Shown piece by piece: positions 903 through 63,909 of a stretch of DNA of 64,000 nt. The stretch comes from a virus: positions 1 to 64,000 of IMG/VR virus record IMGVR_UViG_3300034152_000814. One strand, given 5' to 3'. The notes under the pieces were generated by a model, which saw only the letters and a list, made by a program, of their open reading frames with translations, was not told the origin of the DNA and did not search any database. A program made the position numbers and the translations under genes. Numbering within the stretch: the stretch's first letter is position 1; the number at the start of each line of letters is the position of its first letter.

Positions 903-904
903 AA

Positions 905-960
905 GAAATCCCTTGCATTCCCCTCGGAGCATCGTATCCTGTAGTGAAAGGGGAATTCCG
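905..960 (+). promoter_or_regulatory. conserved promoter+5'UTR cassette, copy A (TTGCAT-16-TATCCT, leader gtagtgaaaggggaa)
   Basis: matches the repeated element found at 60283, 61997, 63001 and 63566; -35 at 913-918, -10 at 935-940, RBS aaagggga before ATG 961. Confidence 0.55.
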
Positions 961-1110
961 ATGAGAAACGCAATCGCGATCGTGCTGGTCGTCGCCGGCC
1001 TGCTCTGGCTCGGTTCCTTGCTCGGGTCCTGCGTCGAGCGCCTGTCCGAGCGCGCGAAGGACGCCGGCGGATTCGTCGGTTGCGCCTACAACCCGGAGAC
1101 CAACGAATGA
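961..1110 (+). CDS. small membrane protein (49 aa)
   Basis: hydrophobic stretch IAIVLVVAGLLWLGSLLG; directly downstream of cassette copy A. Confidence 0.45.
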   Translation: MRNAIAIVLVVAGLLWLGSLLGSCVERLSERAKDAGGFVGCAYNPETNE

Positions 1111-7869: not shown

Positions 7870-7901
7870 CCCGAGGGGGCGCACAACCCTCGGGCGTTTT
7901 C
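7870..7901 (+). terminator. rho-independent terminator
   Basis: CCCGAGGG-9nt-CCCTCGGG followed by CGTTTTC. Confidence 0.6.
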
Positions 7902-7993
7902 ATGTCGCAAGCTCAATTCCCAATTGAGCTTACTTCGTCACTGGGCGTTTTCATGTCGCAAGCTCAATTCCCAATTGAGCTTACTTCGTCACT
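7892..7993. repeat. two tandem 51-bp direct repeats, each with palindrome GCTCAATTcccAATTGAGC
   Basis: exact repeat read directly from the sequence; period 51. Confidence 0.9.
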
Positions 7994-19153: not shown

Positions 19154-19972
19154 ATGGCTCTCTACCTCGTTGAGAAGGAAGACGCCTCCGGTCGGAACGA
19201 CATCGAAGGCGTGAAGGCAATCGTCCTCGAGGCCGACGACGAGGCCACGGCGAAGGAGCTGGCGGCGGCGCGCGTCGAGGGTGACTCGGCTTGGAGCGCC
19301 GCGACGGTCACCGAGATCGCCGCCGGCGTCGCCGCGGACTTCGAGGGGTTCACGTACCGCCTCAAGATCGGGCCGGATCCGACTGGGAGCGAGTACAAGA
19401 ACATCATCGACCTCTCGGAGACGGTCGCGGCCGGCGTCGAGGGGGCTCAGGCGGCAGTGATCGTCGCCGGTGGAACGGGCTACGACGTTGGCGACATCCT
19501 GGAGGTCCAGGGTGGAACCTCGACGGCTCCGGCTCGTCTCGAGGTGACGTCCGAGACCGGGAACGTGATCGACGGCATCAAGGTCATCGACCCCGGACAG
19601 TACAGCGAGACGCCCGCCGATCCCGTCGCCGTGACGGGGGGCAACGGCAACGACGACGCCACGTTCAACATCACGTGGGAGGAGTCGACCCCCGTGGTGG
19701 CCGGTGGCGCCCTCGTCGAGGCCCTGAACGCGGAGCTGGCCATCGCCGGCGCCAAGTTCGAGCCGGCGACGCTCCTGCTCACCGCCGCGGCGGGCAGTGG
19801 TGTGGACGACCTCGGGGACCATACGCTGGTTCTGGAGGTCACGTCTCCGGACGCCGTGCGACCGTTGACCGTGCTCGTCGGTACGATCACCGACAAGGGC
19901 CTCGCGACTGACGACCTGTCGGTCGAGCTCGTAGTTCCCACGGCTGTCCCCGCGATCATGCGGGCACTGTGA
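19154..19972 (+). CDS. capsid decoration / Ig-like-domain protein
   Basis: RBS gagaaaggagcg; contains the GGTGYDVGD..NITWEE module that is also repeated in tail gene 32348. Confidence 0.6.
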   Translation: MALYLVEKEDASGRNDIEGVKAIVLEADDEATAKELAAARVEGDSAWSAATVTEIAAGVAADFEGFTYRLKIGPDPTGSEYKNIIDLSETVAAGVEGAQAAVIVAGGTGYDVGDILEVQGGTSTAPARLEVTSETGNVIDGIKVIDPGQYSETPADPVAVTGGNGNDDATFNITWEESTPVVAGGALVEALNAELAIAGAKFEPATLLLTAAAGSGVDDLGDHTLVLEVTSPDAVRPLTVLVGTITDKGLATDDLSVELVVPTAVPAIMRAL

Positions 19973-19975
19973 GAG

Positions 19976-20268
19976 ATGGCGCTCTACCTGCTCGAGCGCA
20001 GTGGTGGAGGGGCGGAGGCCCTCATCGACGGGGTTCGCTCGTTGGTCCTCGAGGCCACGGCGAAGGAGCTGGCCTCCGCCCTCTACCACGGTGACAGCTC
20101 GTGGAGCGACGCCTCGGTGACGGAGCTCGTCGCGGGAACGGCTGCCGACTACGCGGGGTGGCCAGTGGTGGGGAGTTCATTCCGTCGCCACACCAGCCCG
20201 AGCTCGACGTCTCGGTCACGGGCGGTGTGGAACCCACCGCGATCCCGGTCATCATTCGAGCCATCTGA
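19976..20268 (+). pseudogene. internally deleted, frameshifted tandem paralogue of gene 19154 (or a -1 frameshifted product)
   Basis: N-terminus MALYLLERSGG...AADYAG in frame 2; C-terminus GEFIPSPHQPELDVSVTGGVEPTAIPVIIRAI in frame 1 resembles the C-terminus of gene 19154; junction near 20158. Confidence 0.45.
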
Positions 20269-32348: not shown

Positions 32349-33883
32349 TGGCTTACCAAACAGGAACCGTAACGGACTACGTCGACCTCCTGAACGAGCT
32401 GGTCGATTTCCTCACGTCGCAGGGCGTCGCCACCGTCGCGGTCAACGCCGGCGGGGGCAGCTACGTCGTAGGGGACGTCCTGACGGCGTCGGGTGGGACG
32501 TCGACGCACGCCGCGACGTTCGAGGTGACGAGCGTCGGTGGTGGGGGCGACGTGACCGGGATCATCGTCCTGGAGCACGGGGCGTACACGTCGACGCCCG
32601 GGAACCCGGTCTCGACGACCGGTGGAACCGGCACGGGCTGCACGCTCGACCTCACCTGGCAGGACACGGGCTGGTCGATCCTGCGCGAGACGCAGGAGGC
32701 CGTCTCCGCCACGCCGGCGGCCGGCGGGACCGGCTACCAGGTCGGGGACCAGCTCTCGCTCGTGGGTGGCGTGGAGGTCGCCGAGACGGCCGTCTTCAAC
32801 GTGGACTCCGTGGGTGGCGGCGGGGACGTGACCGGCGTGAGCCTCGTCACGGACGGGTCGTACGGCGAAACGCCGGCGAACGCCGTCTCGACGACGGGCG
32901 GCAACGGCTCCAACTGCACGCTGAACGTCACCTGGCAGGACCTCGACGACGAGGACAAGCAGGTCATCCTCGAGGGTGAGGGGTCCGGCGCCGACCAGAT
33001 CTTCGTCGGGATCAGGTCCTTCAGCTCCGCCCCCATCTACAACTGGGAGCTCGCCGGCATGACCGGATTCGATTCCGGTCTGATCTTCGGCAACCAGCCC
33101 GGGATCTCACCTGGACGGTGGGACGCTGGACCGGTCGCGGACCAGTGCGGCGCCTACGTACCATTGAACAACTCGACGATGACGTACTGGTTCTTCGCGG
33201 ACGGTCGTCGGTTCATCGTGATCGCGAAGATCGGCGCGGTCTACGCGAACCTTCACGTTGGTTTCATCGACCCGTTCTCGATCTCCGCGGACTACCCGTA
33301 CCCGCTGCTGATCCTGGGCTGCTCCAGCGATCCCATGAAACCGTACAACGACACGAGCATCGGGTACTCCGGCATGACGGAACCGATCAGCGCTGACGGT
33401 TACGAGGTCGGGGGGCCCGGTTGGCTCCGGGAGCCCGGTGGTACGTGGACCATGGTGCGGTGCAGCAAGCAGACCACCCCGACTGGACGGCTGGATCCCG
33501 ATCCGGAGGACGTCGTGATTTACCCCACGGGGCAGATAGATCGCGCGAACCTCGACGAGGAGGACCTGTTCTACTACACGGAATGGACGCCGGACGATCT
33601 GGTGCCGTACGCGGGCATTCCAGGATCGCCGGACGTGGAGTACTGGCAAACTCCGGAGACGCCCGATTTCATCACGCCGATATATCCCGCCACGCTCTAC
33701 AAGAGCGGGACGCAGATGCAGGTCTTCGGCGAGATGGCTGACGTGTTCTGGATGAGCACGTTCACGGAGACGACGAACATCGTCACCGAGGATACGGTCA
33801 CGATAAACGGCGACGTTTACCTCGTCTTCCAGAACTGCAACCGCAACGACGCGTGGGCGCACTTCTGCATCAAGAGGAGCTAA
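32348..33883 (+). CDS. distal tail protein with two internal ~85-aa repeats
   Basis: repeats GGTGYQVGD...NVTWQD; N-terminus and C-terminal half paralogous to gene 33885. Confidence 0.6.
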   Translation: MAYQTGTVTDYVDLLNELVDFLTSQGVATVAVNAGGGSYVVGDVLTASGGTSTHAATFEVTSVGGGGDVTGIIVLEHGAYTSTPGNPVSTTGGTGTGCTLDLTWQDTGWSILRETQEAVSATPAAGGTGYQVGDQLSLVGGVEVAETAVFNVDSVGGGGDVTGVSLVTDGSYGETPANAVSTTGGNGSNCTLNVTWQDLDDEDKQVILEGEGSGADQIFVGIRSFSSAPIYNWELAGMTGFDSGLIFGNQPGISPGRWDAGPVADQCGAYVPLNNSTMTYWFFADGRRFIVIAKIGAVYANLHVGFIDPFSISADYPYPLLILGCSSDPMKPYNDTSIGYSGMTEPISADGYEVGGPGWLREPGGTWTMVRCSKQTTPTGRLDPDPEDVVIYPTGQIDRANLDEEDLFYYTEWTPDDLVPYAGIPGSPDVEYWQTPETPDFITPIYPATLYKSGTQMQVFGEMADVFWMSTFTETTNIVTEDTVTINGDVYLVFQNCNRNDAWAHFCIKRS

Positions 33884-57294: not shown

Positions 57295-57549
57295 ATGGCC
57301 CGAAGAGAGATCACATTGTTGAACGGTCCGACAGTGAAAGCTGAAGTGACGAAGCAAGGTCTTCTCGCGATTCACAAAGCGACGCACAAGGGATACGTAA
57401 TAACGCACCTGCCGACGGGTCGAGTCGTGCTATGGACACCGCGGCAAACCGATGCTAAGATGGTGCGGAAGGAGCTCGAGTTGATGGACTGGTCCGACCT
57501 CGAGGCGATTCGAGCTCGGGTTATTCAACTCAGAAAGGAGTACTGCTGA
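57295..57549 (+). CDS. hypothetical protein
   Basis: 84 aa. Confidence 0.45.
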   Translation: MARREITLLNGPTVKAEVTKQGLLAIHKATHKGYVITHLPTGRVVLWTPRQTDAKMVRKELELMDWSDLEAIRARVIQLRKEYC

Positions 57550-58844
57550 TGGGTGATCGCTACATGATCAATCACTCGGTCGACGAGGGACAGGAGTCGG
57601 ACTGGATCACGTTCCAGACCATGCCCGGTCTCGACGAGCTGCCGTGGGCCGCGTCCGTCGCGCGCCGCAACAGCGGGGACAGGGCGAAGGTCGGTATCCG
57701 ATTCGAGGACGCGGACGGCGTCGTGATGCAGGAGGTCAACTACTACGGTCGCGGCGAGTTCTCGAGCGCGGTTCCGAACCTGACCAGCTTCCGCGCACCA
57801 TTCAAGGTGAAAACGAAAGCGCTCATCGGGGACCAGCTCACGACCACGCGCGCGGACGACCAGCTCGTGATCGCTGATCCGCCTGGAGTGATCCAGCCGC
57901 GCAGGTGGGTACACGTCGCGACGTGCACCCTTTCCAGCATCAAGAGCTGCTTCGCGACGACGGTCGGTGGTGCCCGCATCCTGATCGCGGGACACAGCAA
58001 GGACGTCCATTCGTTCAACGGGACCACCGTCGGGCTCGCGACCTCGCTTCCCGCTGCCGATCCGCGCGTGCGCGTCGGGACGTTCCTCAACCGCGGTGGG
58101 CTCGTCTACATGGTCGGCTGCTGCGGTGTGGGTGACCCTGACGCGCGGCTCTACTCGTGGAACGGACTCGCGCCCGAGGTCACCCCGGAAGGGAATCCGA
58201 TCATCGTGGATTCCCCGCAGTGCCGCATGATGGCCACCTTCAACAACGAGCAGCTCCTCGGGCCCGTCCTGAGCGCGGAGGGGCTGAAGCCGATCCTGCG
58301 GTACGACGGTGGTGGGACGTTCACGCAGCGCCTCCAGGCGTTCTGCGGCGGGACGGGGTCGTGGTTCTACGCGCCGGTGATCCACAACGGCGAGCTCTAC
58401 TGGTACGAACCGCACGCCGACCGGCTCCACCGGTGGGACGGGAGCGCGGCCGAGACGTCGTACGAGGATCCCGCGTGGGGAGAGATCAACGCCTTCTCCA
58501 TGGCGTCCTTCAACGGCAACCTCGACATCTTCGGTCCCAAGTGGAAGCGGTGGAACCCCGTCTCCAAGCAGTTCGACAAGGTTGTCCTCGCGTCGGGCTA
58601 CGACTTCGCCAGCCAGGCCGACCAGCAGCACGACTGCTACAGCCCCGTCTACTGGGGGAAGCTGTATACCGCGGACCAGCGCGGTCGGGTGTACCGCTAC
58701 CGGACGAACGGCCAGATCTCCTTCATGGGGCACCTCAAGGAAGCCCCGGTCGGGCTCGCGATGCTCGGCCCGTACCTCTACGCCGTGACGGAGAGCGGGA
58801 AGATCTTCCGCCAGCCGTTCAAGTTCCAGGACATCTTCGCCTGA
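57549..58844 (+). CDS. beta-propeller-like protein, paralogue 1
   Basis: 431 aa; paralogous to gene 58960. Confidence 0.55.
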   Translation: MGDRYMINHSVDEGQESDWITFQTMPGLDELPWAASVARRNSGDRAKVGIRFEDADGVVMQEVNYYGRGEFSSAVPNLTSFRAPFKVKTKALIGDQLTTTRADDQLVIADPPGVIQPRRWVHVATCTLSSIKSCFATTVGGARILIAGHSKDVHSFNGTTVGLATSLPAADPRVRVGTFLNRGGLVYMVGCCGVGDPDARLYSWNGLAPEVTPEGNPIIVDSPQCRMMATFNNEQLLGPVLSAEGLKPILRYDGGGTFTQRLQAFCGGTGSWFYAPVIHNGELYWYEPHADRLHRWDGSAAETSYEDPAWGEINAFSMASFNGNLDIFGPKWKRWNPVSKQFDKVVLASGYDFASQADQQHDCYSPVYWGKLYTADQRGRVYRYRTNGQISFMGHLKEAPVGLAMLGPYLYAVTESGKIFRQPFKFQDIFA

Positions 58845-58849
58845 TCAAC

Positions 58850-58880
58850 CAGGGGCCCGTCCTCCGGGGCGGGCCCCTCT
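58850..58880 (+). terminator. GC-rich hairpin terminator
   Basis: GGGGCCCG..CGGGCCCC followed by TCTCTACTT; a TTGACG-17-TAACAT promoter follows at 58886. Confidence 0.45.
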
Positions 58881-58959
58881 CTACTTGACGACGTGCCGCG
58901 CAACGCGTAACATCGTTGGTAGTATCTCAACACGTCGTCAAGCAAGAGGAGGTCCAACC

Positions 58960-60237
58960 ATGGCGAACACTTACGTCGTCAACCACCAGCTCACGGCCGG
59001 CGAGGACACGGACCGAGTCGAATTTCGAACCGCCGGTGGGCTCGGGACGCTGAACCTCGAGTTCCACGTCTCGCAGCTCGACGAAGACGCCATCGACGTA
59101 ACGATGCGCGTGATCAGCGGTAAGGGGACCGTGATCACGAGCCAGAACCGGACGACGCCCGGGACGGACGCCGTCCCGATCGCGGACGTCGAGAGCTACG
59201 TCCTGCCCCTGTCGATCGAGGTCTCCTGCGCGGCCGGCGCTGCCCACACCTACGTCCGGGCGCCGGACACCGAGGTTCCGATTGGACCGGCTGGAATCTC
59301 GCAGCCACCGCCGTGGGAGGAGGTCGCGGAGTTCACGCTCGCGGACATCCGCGGGATCGTCGCCGCAGGACGGTGGCTCGTCGCCCACGGGCGGCAGAAG
59401 GACATCCACGGCTACAAGGGCTTCGACGCCCCCGTATTGATCGCCCAGATCCCCGCGGCGGACGACCATAGTCGTGTGGGGAATCCCCTCGTCGTCGACG
59501 GCGTCCCGTACTTCATCGCCTGGGGAGGCACCAACGCCCCGACGCTCTACTCCTGGGACCAGGTCGTCGGCTCGGACCTCGACCTCGAGGGCATCCCGAG
59601 CGCCACGGCCTCGCAGCTCCACGTCCACGAGGTCTTCGGCGGGAAGCACCTGCTCGGGCCCGTCGAGCCCGGACCGGAGGCCCCGAAGAACGTCTGGGAG
59701 TACCAGGGGAGCGGCGTTTTCGCCTCGGAGTTCCAGTCGATCTGTAGCACCGCGGGCTCCTGGTGGTGGGGCGGGGCGGAGCTCGACGGGAAGCTCTACT
59801 TCCACGAGGCGAACTCCGACTGGCTGAACTGGTGGGACGGTTCGGTGGCCTCCCAGATCCGGGACGCGAACGGCACGACCGCCGAGAACAACATGAGGGG
59901 CTTCGACGGCGCGGTCCACGCCTTCTCCCGGGACGCCTGGCGCGTCTGGGACGGTGCGTCGCGGTTCATCGTCTACCTGAACACCGGCTCCGGATTCTTC
60001 TGGGACGGCGACCTCGCGAACGGCTCGCAGTCGATCGAGTACCTCGGCCGGTTGCTCGCCGCGGACCAGAGCGGGGACATCTACTCGCTCCGGGACGGCG
60101 TCCTCTCGCTGGAGGGCGACATCGGCGAGGCGCCCGTCGGGCTGGCCGCGGTCGGGCACCACGCCTACTGCGTCGCCCGCAGCGGCAAGATCTACCGTCG
60201 GCGCCTGCGGCTGACCGAGATCCTCCCGGCACTGTAA
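58960..60237 (+). CDS. beta-propeller-like protein, paralogue 2
   Basis: RBS agaggagg; shared N-terminal NH..T.GED and C-terminal EAPVGLA..Y.V..SGKI. Confidence 0.55.
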   Translation: MANTYVVNHQLTAGEDTDRVEFRTAGGLGTLNLEFHVSQLDEDAIDVTMRVISGKGTVITSQNRTTPGTDAVPIADVESYVLPLSIEVSCAAGAAHTYVRAPDTEVPIGPAGISQPPPWEEVAEFTLADIRGIVAAGRWLVAHGRQKDIHGYKGFDAPVLIAQIPAADDHSRVGNPLVVDGVPYFIAWGGTNAPTLYSWDQVVGSDLDLEGIPSATASQLHVHEVFGGKHLLGPVEPGPEAPKNVWEYQGSGVFASEFQSICSTAGSWWWGGAELDGKLYFHEANSDWLNWWDGSVASQIRDANGTTAENNMRGFDGAVHAFSRDAWRVWDGASRFIVYLNTGSGFFWDGDLANGSQSIEYLGRLLAADQSGDIYSLRDGVLSLEGDIGEAPVGLAAVGHHAYCVARSGKIYRRRLRLTEILPAL

Positions 60238-60246
60238 GATCACTCC

Positions 60247-60280
60247 GGGCCCCGTCTTCCAGCGGGGCCCTTCGTTTTTC
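60247..60280 (+). terminator. rho-independent terminator
   Basis: GGGCCCCG-8nt-CGGGGCCC followed by TTCGTTTTTC. Confidence 0.7.
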
Positions 60281-60388
60281 TAAGATTTTCCTTGACGATT
60301 CCCGGGGATGTTGTATGCTGTAGGTGAAAGGGGAAAACGAAATGCTCAGCAACGCGACCTACTACACCGGGAACAACGGCAAGGTGGA
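60281..60388 (+). repeat. 108-bp exact duplicate (other copy at 61997..62104) covering promoter, 5'UTR and first 15 codons
   Basis: identical strings taagattttccttgacgattcccggggatgttgtatgctgtaggtgaaaggggaaaacgaaatgctcagcaacgcgacctactacaccgggaacaacggcaaggtgga. Confidence 0.9.
60286..60341 (+). promoter_or_regulatory. promoter+5'UTR cassette, copy B (TTGACG-16-TATGCT)
   Basis: -35 at 60292-97, -10 at 60314-19, leader gtaggtgaaaggggaaaacgaa. Confidence 0.6.
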
Positions 60389-60590
60389 GCGGATCGTGAT
60401 CGGTCGGAGCGCGAGCCTCGACACGGCCCTCGAGGAAGCGCAGCGGATCATCCGGGAGGACGGCTTCCAGAATAGCGTCCGGGACTGGATCGAGGACGAG
60501 GACGGGAAGGCGGCAGCCTTCTCGAAGGAAGAGAGCGGGCGCGGCATCTACGCCTGCGCGACCCGATCGATCACGATCGTCCGGAAGTGA
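60342..60590 (+). CDS. small early protein (82 aa)
   Basis: MLSNATYYTGNNGKV N-terminus shared with gene 62058. Confidence 0.55.
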   Translation: MLSNATYYTGNNGKVERIVIGRSASLDTALEEAQRIIREDGFQNSVRDWIEDEDGKAAAFSKEESGRGIYACATRSITIVRK

Positions 60591-60657
60591 ATACTCGCGG
60601 GCAGGGGCCCCGGGCGGTCCGGGGTCCCTATAACTAACCCTCGAAAGGAGATACGCT

Positions 60658-61494
60658 ATGAAAGGTCTGCTTCTACACTGCGGCGCGTCCGCCACGACTC
60701 GGGAAGCGATCGTCGCCACGCCGACGCCCCCGCCCACGGACACGCACTTCCCGATCCCGCACGGCGAGCTCCTGCGGAGCGTCGAGGAGTACCTATCCGA
60801 GAGCGGGTACGAGGTCGTCGAGCAGGCGCACGGCCTCGGGAACTACGGCGCCCGGTACTTCGGGCTCCTGCGCGTCCGTCGCCCCCAGCGAGCCTGGGAT
60901 ACCCTCGACACGCCGGTCGGGACGATCCCGTTCGGGGTCGACACGCCGGACCTCGCGCGCGGCGAGGTGGTCGGGCTGCGGAACGCCCACGACAAGCGGT
61001 ACAGCGCGTCCGTCGCCCTGGGCGACTACGTGTTCGTCTGCGACAACCTGTCCTTCGCCGGCGAGGTCGTGATCGGCCGGAAGCACACGAGGTTCATCCG
61101 GCGCGACCTCGACGGGATCATCCGGCGCGCGGTCGGCGAGCTCGGCGAGTTCCGCCAGCGCCAGGAGACCCGCCGGGACGCCTACCGGCAGACGGAGCTC
61201 TCGACTCGGGACGCCTACGCCCTCACCGTCGACGCCCTGAAGGCCGGCGCGATCGGTCAGCAGCGATTCCGCCGGGTGATCCGCGAGTGGGACGAGCCCT
61301 CCCACGAGGAGTTCGCCCAGGAGCGGAACGTCTGGCGGCTCTACAACGCCGTCACGGAGGCATTCAAGCCCCGCGTGCTCGCCGACGGGTCCTTCGCCAG
61401 GGGAGCGGGTCTGAACGCCCTGGCGGACAACGTGAAGGCGTCCAGGGCCCTCCACGGCGTCCTGGACGGGCACTGCGGGATCGCACTCAACTGA
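60658..61494 (+). CDS. hypothetical protein, possibly DUF932-like phage/plasmid protein
   Basis: 278 aa; RBS gaaaggagatacgct. Confidence 0.55.
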   Translation: MKGLLLHCGASATTREAIVATPTPPPTDTHFPIPHGELLRSVEEYLSESGYEVVEQAHGLGNYGARYFGLLRVRRPQRAWDTLDTPVGTIPFGVDTPDLARGEVVGLRNAHDKRYSASVALGDYVFVCDNLSFAGEVVIGRKHTRFIRRDLDGIIRRAVGELGEFRQRQETRRDAYRQTELSTRDAYALTVDALKAGAIGQQRFRRVIREWDEPSHEEFAQERNVWRLYNAVTEAFKPRVLADGSFARGAGLNALADNVKASRALHGVLDGHCGIALN

Positions 61495-61515
61495 GAAAAT
61501 GTTCCTCTCAAGCAC

Positions 61516-61556
61516 CGCGCCCCGGGGGCTCTTCCCTGGGGCGCATTTATTTTCAA
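61516..61556 (+). terminator. rho-independent terminator
   Basis: GCGCCCCGGGG..CCCTGGGGCGC followed by ATTTATTTTC. Confidence 0.5.
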
Positions 61557-61557
61557 G

Positions 61558-61627
61558 ATTTTCCTTGACGGTCCCGCGATCCCATCGTATCCTTCTGTGG
61601 CTTCGAGAGACAAGGAAAGGGGGAGCC
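61558..61627 (+). promoter_or_regulatory. promoter+5'UTR cassette, copy C (TTGACG-17-TATCCT, variant leader)
   Basis: -35 at 61565-70, -10 at 61588-93, leader tctgtggcttcgagagacaaggaaaggggg. Confidence 0.55.
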
Positions 61628-61999
61628 ATGAGTATCAAGTACGTCACGGTCGTCGGGAAGTTCGACACGTTCGCGGAAGCGGTCAAGAGCGTCCAGGGGA
61701 TCAACCTGGATGCGGTCGAGGGTCCAGTGGTTTCCACGGTCGAGGAGGACCCTCAGAAGGCGGCGAACTGGGAGCTCGTCGTCTCCTGTCTATCCCCCAC
61801 CAAAGGGACTGTCCGCCAAGCGGCGATCGCCGGGGACGAGGGCGCAGCCACGATCTTCGAGGTCGCCTACCTGCTCTGCGACGGTTTCGGGCAGATTGAC
61901 GGGCGGTGGGCCCGGGAGCAGTGCTGGGACTGGTCGCACGTCCGGGACTCATCGGACGAAGCCCTGGCGCGCTGCGCGGACTACCTTCGCAGCGTCTAA
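61628..61999 (+). CDS. small early protein (123 aa)
   Basis: ATG right after the variant leader. Confidence 0.55.
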   Translation: MSIKYVTVVGKFDTFAEAVKSVQGINLDAVEGPVVSTVEEDPQKAANWELVVSCLSPTKGTVRQAAIAGDEGAATIFEVAYLLCDGFGQIDGRWAREQCWDWSHVRDSSDEALARCADYLRSV

Positions 62000-62000
62000 G

Positions 62001-62057
62001 ATTTTCCTTGACGATTCCCGGGGATGTTGTATGCTGTAGGTGAAAGGGGAAAACGAA
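62001..62057 (+). promoter_or_regulatory. promoter+5'UTR cassette, copy D (identical to copy B)
   Basis: -35 at 62008-13, -10 at 62030-35. Confidence 0.6.
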
Positions 62058-62411
62058 ATGCTCAGCAACGCGACCTACTACACCGGGAACAACGGCAAGG
62101 TGGACGGCTTCCGGAACAGCGTCCGGGACTGGATCGAGGACAGAGAAAACCCAAAAGGAGAAACAGAGATGACACTACTGCAGCAAGCAATCGACCGGAG
62201 CCGGACCCACACCGAGCGAGTCAGCGTGGAGTTCGACGGCGATAAATCAGACCTGATGGTGGCATTGGCCGGTCTGTACGATGGTGAGATTGATGACGCG
62301 ACAGAGAATGACGGCACGGTCGACGTGTGGGGGTGGACCGAGGAAATGGCCGAGGGGGAAATGGATTGGCGACTCTGCGTGACGCTGACCCGGCGCGTTC
62401 GCGAGCTGTGA
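62058..62411 (+). CDS. small early protein (117 aa), mosaic
   Basis: first 15 aa identical to gene 60342, then joins at the shared GF(Q/R)NSVRDWIED segment. Confidence 0.55.
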   Translation: MLSNATYYTGNNGKVDGFRNSVRDWIEDRENPKGETEMTLLQQAIDRSRTHTERVSVEFDGDKSDLMVALAGLYDGEIDDATENDGTVDVWGWTEEMAEGEMDWRLCVTLTRRVREL

Positions 62412-62740
62412 TTCGCTGCCCGAAATGCGGGCACGAGTGGAAGGACGAGGGGCGCGCCAAGGGTGGGCGCGCCTCTCGGCGCACGATCACGCCAGCACAG
62501 CAGGCACGGATGCAGGCCGCCAGGAAACGGCGCAAGGCCATAGAAAACTTATTTCCAGGATTTTCCTTGACGGTTCCGCGATCCCATCGTATCCTTCTCT
62601 GGCTTCGAGAGACACGGAAGGGAGGGAGCCATGAGCAAGTGCGAATGCGGACGCCGGAAGAGTCAGTACGCGGGACGCTGCCGGAAGTGCACGCGGGAGC
62701 GGGACGAGGCCCGCGCAAACGAGAACCGGGCGATCGTTGA
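62408..62740 (+). CDS. Zn-ribbon protein; ORF reads through cassette copy E
   Basis: CPKCGHEW; GTGA coupling; no in-frame stop before 62740, so the real C-terminus is uncertain. Confidence 0.3.
   Translation: MIRCPKCGHEWKDEGRAKGGRASRRTITPAQQARMQAARKRRKAIENLFPGFSLTVPRSHRILLWLRETRKGGSHEQVRMRTPEESVRGTLPEVHAGAGRGPRKREPGDR
62558..62630 (+). promoter_or_regulatory. promoter+5'UTR cassette, copy E (TTGACG-17-TATCCT, variant leader)
   Basis: -35 at 62567-72, -10 at 62590-95. Confidence 0.55.
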
Positions 62741-62885
62741 GACCGGTCACTGCCCGGACTGCGGGGCCCCGCTGCGCCGGAACCTGGCCCTGGCCGGCTG
62801 GTGGCAGTGCTCGCAGTACGGCGCCGAGGGGTTCCGCGCCGACGACTCGAAGCCCTCCTGTAACTTCCAATGCTCCACGGAGTAA
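62631..62885 (+). CDS. Zn-ribbon protein (84 aa)
   Basis: CECGRR..CRKC ... CPDCG ... CNFQC. Confidence 0.5.
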   Translation: MSKCECGRRKSQYAGRCRKCTRERDEARANENRAIVETGHCPDCGAPLRRNLALAGWWQCSQYGAEGFRADDSKPSCNFQCSTE

Positions 62886-63001
62886 CGAATGAACATATTC
62901 GCCACGGACCCAGACCCGGTCGCTTCGGCCCGCGCGCTGGACGCGGTGCACGCCGCCAGCCTGGATAAGCGGCGAGGACACAGCAACTTAGAAAACCACC
63001 A

Positions 63002-63059
63002 AGAATCTCCTTGAAAATCCTCTGGAGCATCGTATCATGTAGGTGAAAGGGGAAACGGA
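63002..63059 (+). promoter_or_regulatory. promoter+5'UTR cassette, copy F (TTGAAA-16-TATCAT)
   Basis: -35 at 63011-16, -10 at 63033-38, leader gtaggtgaaaggggaaacggaa. Confidence 0.55.
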
Positions 63060-63362
63060 ATGAGCAAGACGATCGAGGCGGGAAGCGGGCGGGTCGAGGC
63101 GAGCGCGGCGGTGGGTTGCATCCTGGAGCCGGACGGGCGCATGGGCGAGAATCTCCTCCCCTGCGAGGACTACTCGGACGCGAGCTTCCGCTTCCCCGTC
63201 CTGGGACTCGAGATCGCCTGCAACGTCCACGTCACCGGCCGGAAGCTCCAGTACGACGGCGGCAACACGAAGGTCCGCGTGCGAATCGAGTGGGTCGGCG
63301 ACGGCGAGCCCTCCACGTTCTGCGGCGGGTGGCTCTGGCGGCCGGTCCTGAAGTTCGCGTGA
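63060..63362 (+). CDS. small early protein (100 aa)
   Basis: ATG directly after the leader. Confidence 0.5.
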   Translation: MSKTIEAGSGRVEASAAVGCILEPDGRMGENLLPCEDYSDASFRFPVLGLEIACNVHVTGRKLQYDGGNTKVRVRIEWVGDGEPSTFCGGWLWRPVLKFA

Positions 63363-63556: not shown

Positions 63557-63565
63557 CGTATTCCC

Positions 63566-63624
63566 AAGATTTTCCTTGAAAATCCCCAGGAGCATCGTAT
63601 CATGTAAGTGAAAGGGGAAACGAA
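63566..63624 (+). promoter_or_regulatory. promoter+5'UTR cassette, copy G (TTGAAA-16-TATCAT)
   Basis: -35 at 63576-81, -10 at 63598-603, leader gtaagtgaaaggggaaacgaa. Confidence 0.55.
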
Positions 63625-63909
63625 ATGAGAAAATGTCGGGTCTGCAAGACGAACGAGATCAGCGAGCACTACGACATCTGCCTCGACTGCTTCGAGAAGC
63701 TCCCGCGCGTCCGCGTGTCGAGCCCCGTGGGACCCTGCCTGACCAACCGCCGCCTCGTCCGCGTGAACCGGACGACCTGCACCGTCGCCTTCCGGAACGG
63801 TGAGTACGCCTCGACCGAACGGGAGACGAAGGGACTCGTGCACGGCGAGCCCTGCTCCTGCTGCACGGACCACGAGCACACGCAGTATCCCATGGGATAC
63901 ACGAACTGA
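63625..63909 (+). CDS. Zn-ribbon protein (94 aa)
   Basis: CRVCK ... CLDC ... CSCC. Confidence 0.5.
   Translation: MRKCRVCKTNEISEHYDICLDCFEKLPRVRVSSPVGPCLTNRRLVRVNRTTCTVAFRNGEYASTERETKGLVHGEPCSCCTDHEHTQYPMGYTN

Follow-up and report, generated by a model that had tools for sequence, protein, structure and literature searches.

How does a small phage gene come to begin with the promoter, the leader and the first codons of a different gene? The question is raised by positions 1 to 64,000 of IMG/VR virus record IMGVR_UViG_3300034152_000814 (the window, that is, the whole stretch of 64,000 nucleotides analysed here), where an open reading frame (ORF) starting at 62058 shares its 5′ end with an upstream gene, gene A, starting at 60342. 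The window represents the genome of an uncultured tailed phage, of ~64.5 kb with a guanine-cytosine (GC) content of 65% and with all ORFs on the + strand. Hallmark phage genes are present (terminase, portal, major head protein, tape measure protein, DNA polymerase, and a Dda-like helicase), and the gene set is unlike that of T4. ORF 62058 is a 28-codon stub of gene A (the A' stub) fused in frame, through the leader of another gene, to that gene, an independent one that we call gene X. Its probable history is that a module of gene A and its promoter, P_A, was duplicated, was later eroded by deletions, and now drives X.

A repeat search of the window recovered an exact direct repeat of 110 nt (60279-60388 and 61995-62104) with a spacing of 1716 nt. 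The 108 bp reported as identical in the original prediction (60281-60388 and 61997-62104) lie inside this repeat, which is 2 nt longer. Chance is excluded as its source, because the only other long perfect repeat in the window is a tandem one at 7892-7993, an apparently intergenic 51-nt sequence in two copies. The original prediction also assigned a promoter, a leader and the first 15 codons to each copy, and all three were located in both: a sigma-70-like P_A (TTGACG, 16-nt spacer, TATGCT; 60292-60319 and 62008-62035), the leader GTAGGTGAAAGGGGAAAACGAA, and a coding part that starts at the ATG (60342 or 62058) and comprises 15 codons plus 2 nt, encoding MLSNATYYTGNNGKV. A hairpin at 60247-60270 (9 pairs, 8 of them G-C, with a T-rich tail; -23.7 kcal/mol, z = -3.9) precedes copy 1, and no terminator was found upstream of copy 2. 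The possibility that the duplicated leader forms a structured regulatory RNA was rejected (fold z = -0.1 to -0.4, no Rfam matches in the region).

Beyond copy 2, the sequence from 62105 on begins CGGCTTCCGG, and 62105-62141 matches 60461-60497 in gene A over 37 nt with two mismatches. This second shared element bears out the earlier observation that both genes carry GF(Q/R)NSVRDWIED. One mismatch, A/G at 60469 (62113 in copy 2), changes Gln to Arg, and the other, T/C at 60473 (62117), is synonymous. A 72-nt block of gene A (codons 16-39) is missing from copy 2, an in-frame deletion with GGA microhomology at the joint, and codons 40-52 (60459-60497) recur after it, giving the stub DGFRNSVRDWIED. 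Similarity to gene A ends after GAGGAC (62141); the sequence that follows, AGAGAAAACCCAAAAGGAGAAACAGAG-ATG, has a GC content of 0.41 and contains a Shine-Dalgarno sequence and the ATG at 62169. This leader (62142-62168) is homologous to the leader of X in another contig (L004), where nucleotide homology to the window spans 62147-62390 and so sets in 5 nt past the joint.

For gene A itself, no real homologue was found: a search of 5.8 billion proteins returned the gene A protein (P0001) as the sole genuine match, and a likeness to giant cadherin-like or RTX repeat proteins, seen as multi-stretch full HMMER matches, was judged spurious. In the Joint Genome Institute (JGI) annotation, gene A (P0001) starts at ATG 60342, whereas the chimeric ORF (P0002) is given 123 amino acids (aa) from GTG 62040. 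These start calls are inconsistent for identical sequence, the counterpart of 62040 in copy 1 being 60324. With only 5 nt between it and the -10 hexamer, GTG 62040 is unlikely to fall within the transcript.

Searches with the 117-aa ORF retrieved 11 homologue clusters, 54-85% identical, which match its C-terminal part only. All 11 begin at the residue equivalent to Met38 (ATG 62169), and an N-terminal extension is found in none. The homologues are 76-92 aa long or longer at the C-terminus; three are longer, at that end only. Contigs that carry X (L002-L006 and L010-L013) have only X in common with the window, and the GC content of X-homologue contigs is 51-59%. In other phages, X is the first gene behind its own promoter, which is of the TTGACA type in L004 and L005, with a terminator hairpin in addition in L005. 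GC content at third codon positions (GC3) is 0.73 in X vs 0.85-0.94 in most neighbouring genes. An AlphaFold2 model of X (predicted local distance difference test score 86) has the order alpha-beta-alpha-beta-beta-beta, and a Foldseek search with it against PDB and BFVD gave no match with E < 0.001. The earlier view of gene 62058 as a derivative of gene 60342 is thus partly right: the gene is chimeric and takes its 5′ end, with an internal deletion, from gene A, but just 28 of its 117 codons come from there and the remainder includes the unrelated 80-aa X. As a side observation on the surroundings of X, its neighbours at 11067-13924 in L005 (15.8 kb) give weak or faint matches to Csf1 and Csf3, which are type IV CRISPR-associated; farther upstream come genes for a CsrA homologue and an N6/N4 methyltransferase.

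P_A belongs to a family of seven related cassettes (at 903, 60282, 61555, 61998, 62557, 63001, and 63566), all on the + strand and each just before an ATG. They are confined to 60.2-64 kb and 0.9 kb, a region of small genes that is probably the early region. Promoter-like sites number nine vs 1.0 expected. The seven sets of -35 and -10 elements combine TTGACG, TTGAAA or TTGCAT with TATGCT, TATCCT or TATCAT across a 16-17-nt spacer, and a conserved AT-rich block, AAGATTTTCC, lies upstream of the -35, with a local GC content of 0.44-0.50 in a 65% GC genome. Every cassette ends with GAAAGGGG or GGAAAGGGGG, followed by ATG. Leaders are of an A type (903, 60282, 61998, 63001, and 63566) or a B type (61555 and 62557, 91% identical to each other; the cassette P_B is likewise 91% identical to 62549-62625). 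Strong hairpins stand ahead of two of the seven, the one before copy 1 and one at 61517-61544 (z = -4.1). Apart from DUF932 in gene B, which lies between the repeat copies, the genes behind the cassettes have no Pfam match above the curated cut-off, and their PHROG matches are weak (E > 0.01). The 110-nt pair is perfectly identical, vs 67-91% identity for the remaining cassette pairs, which points to a recent event or to homogenisation.

Relatives of the window proved scarce. A blastn search of 58.8-64 kb against 50,697 phage records gave zero DNA matches, the cassette pattern had no match in IMG/VR, an exact 22-mer taken from the repeat had none in JGI metagenome contigs, and exact-protein look-ups of gene A, gene B and P0001 yielded no record. 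Searches based on the primase found a single 49%-identical relative, with no cassettes and no downstream genes in common, and a relative found through DUF932 (L001, 37% identity) shares nothing else with the window. The best relative, reached via gene C, the second gene between the repeat copies, is a 20-kb stretch of a 67.9-kb Logan contig (L007, 66% GC). Its DNA polymerase and primase are 60-73% identical in aa sequence to those of the window, and gene order agrees: in L007, the primase is followed by an 86-aa gene, a B-type cassette, a 51-aa gene, gene B (DUF932), a 185-aa gene, a second B-type cassette, gene C, a hairpin, and the next gene. Kept between the two are the primase, the small gene after it (84 aa in the window), and then B and C with B-type cassettes, gene B being 55-59% identical in aa sequence to L007 8556-9149. 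Since B and C hold the same syntenic position after the primase and the 84-aa gene, we regard them as ancestral residents.

The cassettes are common to L007 and the window, but most genes between them differ. Cassette identity is 90-100% within this genome and 76-88% to L007, a hint of concerted evolution. The cassette families are conserved, putatively regulatory elements of a phage group comprising the window and L007. Gene A, A'-X and a pair of paralogues at 57549-60237 are missing from the 20-kb stretch of L007, and downstream of its gene C the hairpin is present and a cassette is absent. A comparison of homologous phages for either repeat copy, which the original prediction had proposed as a check, could be made with this distant relative only, and both copies are absent there. 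The two paralogues are adjacent, encode 431 and ~426-450 aa, and match neither Pfam nor PHROG; along with P_A, gene A and the terminator, they stand where L007 has a B-type cassette and the 51-aa gene. Both P_A copies accordingly lie at borders of lineage-specific DNA.

Three joints define copy 2. At J1 (61994|61995), gene C runs up to the cassette's left edge, which precedes the conserved AAGATTTTCCTTGA block (from 61998) by 3 nt. J2 (62104|62105) is the 72-nt deletion with its GGA microhomology, and J3 (62141|62142) connects gene A codon 52 to the X leader with at most 3 nt of homology; both lie within coding sequence. J2 and J3 are illegitimate, and J1 coincides with a cassette edge. The final sense codon of gene C, GTC (61994-61996), overlaps the repeat from 61995 and has its last base supplied by copy 2, as is the stop codon, TAA (61997-61999). 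Homology between gene C and L007 stops at 61994, one base short of copy 2, and the tail of gene C past DWSHVRDSS is the shortest in this comparison (14 aa, vs 15-96 aa in the 37 homologue sequences examined and 19 aa in L007). Together, the short tail and the end of homology place the left joint at the extreme 3′ end of gene C, with a few codons lost at most. A truncation of gene C by the joint was set aside as weakly supported, the tail being shorter by one residue than the next and by five than that of L007. Also set aside was a TC(G/T)AAGA microhomology between the 3′ end of L007 gene C and the left edge of the cassette, which leaves a 9-nt gap unexplained.

These features suggest a history in which the P_A-A unit, probably as part of the whole 1716-nt unit of P_A, A, B, terminator, P_B and C, was duplicated by unequal or illegitimate recombination, after which deletions would have removed everything from gene A codon 52 to the X leader. 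Duplication followed by deletion is the most likely order, although one exchange with homology at just one of its sides could have yielded the same product. The intact copy at 60279 would drive genes A and B, while the copy at 61995, abutting the end of gene C, would have been reduced to promoter, leader and 28-codon stub. X would in this way have captured a resident promoter, being transcribed from P_A and, as no terminator lies in between, by read-through from P_B and gene C. It could be translated in two ways: as the 117-aa fusion from the strong ribosome-binding site (RBS) of gene A, or as the native 80-aa protein from its own AAGGAG, 8 nt ahead of its ATG. Firing of the P_A copies and synthesis of both proteins are predicted here from their signals. 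The perfect identity of the 110 nt may reflect recency, or gene conversion bounded by the deletion.

Some points weigh against this history. No close relative with gene A or A'-X, from which the ancestral state and the order of events could be read, was found in INPHARED, IMG/VR or JGI contigs. The contrast between 0 mismatches in 110 nt and 2 in 37 nt is only marginal (Fisher p = 0.06). Moreover, both deletions would be in frame by chance in ~1 of 9 cases, so selection for a fusion protein is not demonstrated. The same chance value tells against the idea that the 28-residue A' peptide is a functional N-terminal module (for interaction, targeting or enhanced translation) and the fusion a selected product. 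Both deletions are indeed in frame, the 9-codon linker is free of stops and the gene A RBS is unchanged, yet X retains its own intact Shine-Dalgarno sequence and ATG, its homologues lack any such extension, the stub has one non-synonymous change among its two substitutions, and the deletion takes 24 of the 82 gene A codons, seemingly, from reading the sequence, a central strand-helix core. We find a selected tag quite improbable.

Pure homologous exchange between resident cassettes, one of which once stood before X, would replace the X promoter with P_A and leave the stub as a passive remnant. It would explain why the left edge of the exact repeat (61995) falls 3 nt from a conserved cassette start and why cassettes resemble each other within this genome more than they resemble those of L007, as expected under mutual recombination or conversion; X does follow its own promoter in other phages, and the promoter-early stem-loops (PeSLs) of T4-type phages offer a precedent (PMC2839356). 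Such an exchange should end inside the cassette, however, whereas the tract reaches 47 nt into gene A, omits the next 72 nt, resumes for 37 nt and has a non-homologous end, an extent that makes at least two of the three joints illegitimate. Exchange accounts for J1 but not for J2 or J3, and even at J1 it must contend with an L007 that has a hairpin and no cassette after gene C, and with a gene C whose stop and last base come from the repeat. It is an unlikely explanation. For the same reasons, the earlier claim of recent cassette-mediated recombination is upheld only in part: perfect identity fits recency or homogenisation, but mediation by the cassette is not directly shown, with just one edge of the tract at a cassette boundary and the other joints inside coding sequence.

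Integration of a mini-circle (P_A, A, B, terminator, P_B, and C) by Campbell-type homologous recombination into a resident P_A-A'-X would make the 110-nt repeats the limits of shared homology, and would explain both the abutment of gene C on P_A without an intergenic spacer and the end of the repeat exactly at the A/A' deletion joint. PeSLs are known to form such circles (PMC2839356), but B and C, at the same syntenic position in L007, are ancestral residents rather than a recent insert, and we hold this route to be very improbable. We are as doubtful that strain variants were mis-joined at a shared repeat. The contig, a single JGI one of 64,545 nt that encodes P0001 and P0002, does come from a metagenome assembly, and the abrupt GC switch at ~637, near the contig end, may be another chimeric join. 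Copy 2, though, differs by a 72-nt deletion and two substitutions, both flanks are unique, both joints keep ORFs intact, and a strain bubble would not yield the gene C-P_A joint; by general knowledge, 110 nt is also less than typical 150-nt reads and the largest common assembler k-mers. A duplicated and then eroded P_A-gene A module is therefore the account we retain. A speculative extension, to which we attach only a slim chance, is that the 110-nt repeats serve as a working recombination substrate that excises the 1,716-nt unit (most of A, B, terminator, P_B, and C) as a PeSL-like mini-circle. Excision would leave the terminator followed by P_A-A'-X, the population would toggle or be polymorphic for the module of B (DUF932) and C, and the in-frame stub would be maintained so that translation from the strong gene A RBS stays coupled to X.

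Table 1. Positions of the repeat copies, genes, and cassettes discussed in the text (window coordinates).
Feature	Position	Strand	Details
Intrinsic terminator closing the upstream operon	60247-60278	+	Hairpin 60247-60270 and T-run; directly before copy 1
Repeat copy 1	60279-60388	+	P_A -35 60292-60297, -10 60314-60319; leader, RBS, ATG 60342, 15 codons
Gene A	60342-60590	+	82 aa; origin of the duplicated 5′ end
Gene B	60658-61494	+	278 aa, DUF932 family (PF06067, E 2.5e-7); between the repeat copies
Terminator hairpin 61517-61544, then P_B	61517-61623	+	-35 at 61565, -10 ends 61593
Gene C	61628-61999	+	123 aa, DWSHVRDSS family
Repeat copy 2	61995-62104	+	P_A -35 62008-62013, -10 62030-62035; leader, ATG 62058, 15 codons
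A' stub	62058-62141	+	Gene A codons 1-15, then 40-52; 28 codons; deletion at 62104|62105
A'-X chimeric ORF	62058-62411	+	117 aa from ATG 62058
Native leader of gene X with Shine-Dalgarno AAAGGAG	62142-62168	+	GC 0.41; reads in frame RENPKGETE
Gene X	62169-62411	+	80 aa; small phage gene, independently conserved
P_B', second B-type cassette	62549-62625	+	-35 at 62567, -10 ends 62595; before gene 62631-62885
A-type cassette	62999-63067	+	Before gene 63060-63362
A-type cassette	63564-63632	+	Before gene 63625-63909
A-type cassette, other end of the window	903-963	+	Syntenic with the L007 cassette at ~13590

Other gene stubs at joints nearby (62889, 62408, and ~637) indicate that illegitimate joining is common in the region. 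A 41-aa ORF at 62889-63014 aligns with phrog_624 ('DNA binding protein', 309 positions, E 1.6e-4) over positions 1-22 only, and its N-terminus also occurs in cyanophage and Rhizobium phage genes; it is the 5′ stub of a gene and breaks off shortly ahead of the cassette at 63001. ORF 62408-62740 overlaps the stop codon of X (GTGA) and carries a single CxxC knuckle, IRCPKCGHEW, like the C-terminal halves of zinc-ribbon profiles. It meets no stop ahead of P_B' and runs through the cassette into the next gene in a different frame, and it is likely to be a further gene fragment. Between 62411 and 62549, the terminator search was negative.

At the other end of the window, positions 1-~636 have a GC content of ~0.4-0.48 vs 0.65 elsewhere and encode a DNA methyltransferase (44-586; phrog_359, E 1.6e-81). 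ORF 583-735 there has a low-GC start resembling a helix-turn-helix (MKIYKITEASEYLGVSIN) fused in frame to high-GC DNA, with the abrupt switch at ~637. The low-GC stretch is either a foreign module acquired by illegitimate recombination or a chimeric contig end. Diverged internal direct repeats at 19240-20159 and 32533-32941 (110 and 133 nt, each 73% identical) lie in the structural-gene region and suggest paralogous or repeat-containing structural genes.

A'-X is, for all its neatness, an ordinary phage mosaic joint, set in a PeSL-like cassette region, and it leaves the current understanding of phage mosaicism unchanged. Its value is as a base-resolved case of how a phage accessory region is rebuilt: a cassette copied, a foreign gene X placed behind it, and a translated remnant kept at the joint. 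Annotations should treat ORF 62058 as gene X preceded by a stub rather than as a new protein family.

Tandem segmental duplication followed by deletion is known in phage genomes under packaging constraint. The 1716-nt spacing, the novel gene C-P_A joint and the erosion of the second copy by microhomology deletions resemble such a course, except that the full duplicated intermediate is not observed and the scenario is drawn from its remnant only. The locus can also be set beside the morons and gene-boundary mosaic joints of tailed phages, reportedly described by Hendrix, Juhala and colleagues. Like a moron, X is a one-gene module that occurs in unrelated phage contexts, where it has its own promoter, and its GC3 is below that of its new neighbours; it is present in one phage and absent from the 20-kb stretch of its relative L007. 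The joints in the window likewise lie at or near gene boundaries and have little or no homology. In contrast to a moron, X has here lost its own promoter, which is replaced by the resident P_A and the A' stub, carries the translated remnant of another gene, and has no detected downstream terminator of its own. By analogy, X would behave as a moron-type single-gene module minus its promoter.

The closest parallel for the cassettes is the PeSL of T4-type phages, in which a sigma-70-like early promoter, AT-rich sequence upstream of it, a stem-loop, a Shine-Dalgarno sequence and a start codon form a repeated unit (Arbiol et al. 2010, PMC2839356). PeSLs are found mainly ahead of orphan genes in hyperplastic regions and bring about modular shuffling and the formation of mini-circles (PMC2839356). 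The window offers similar repeated cassettes of ~70-100 nt, in which a strong sigma-70-like promoter follows an AT-rich stretch and a Shine-Dalgarno sequence leads to the start codon. They sit together in a hypervariable region whose small genes lack known homologues, are tied to gene insertions, deletions and replacements between related phages, and as direct repeats flank a gene block that could be excised as a circle. PeSL cassettes are reportedly also the subject of a 2014 follow-up to the study of Arbiol and colleagues (PMC4122927). The differences are that the window is not a T4-like myovirus but a ~64.5-kb genome of 65% GC with unrelated genes, that a hairpin accompanies just two of seven cassettes and is missing at P_A copy 2, and that the duplicated tract enters coding sequence and ends at illegitimate joints. 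On these likenesses, the locus would work like a PeSL region without being a strict member of that family, and PeSL-like repeated cassettes thus also occur in an unrelated high-GC phage lineage, conserved in two members, the window and L007.

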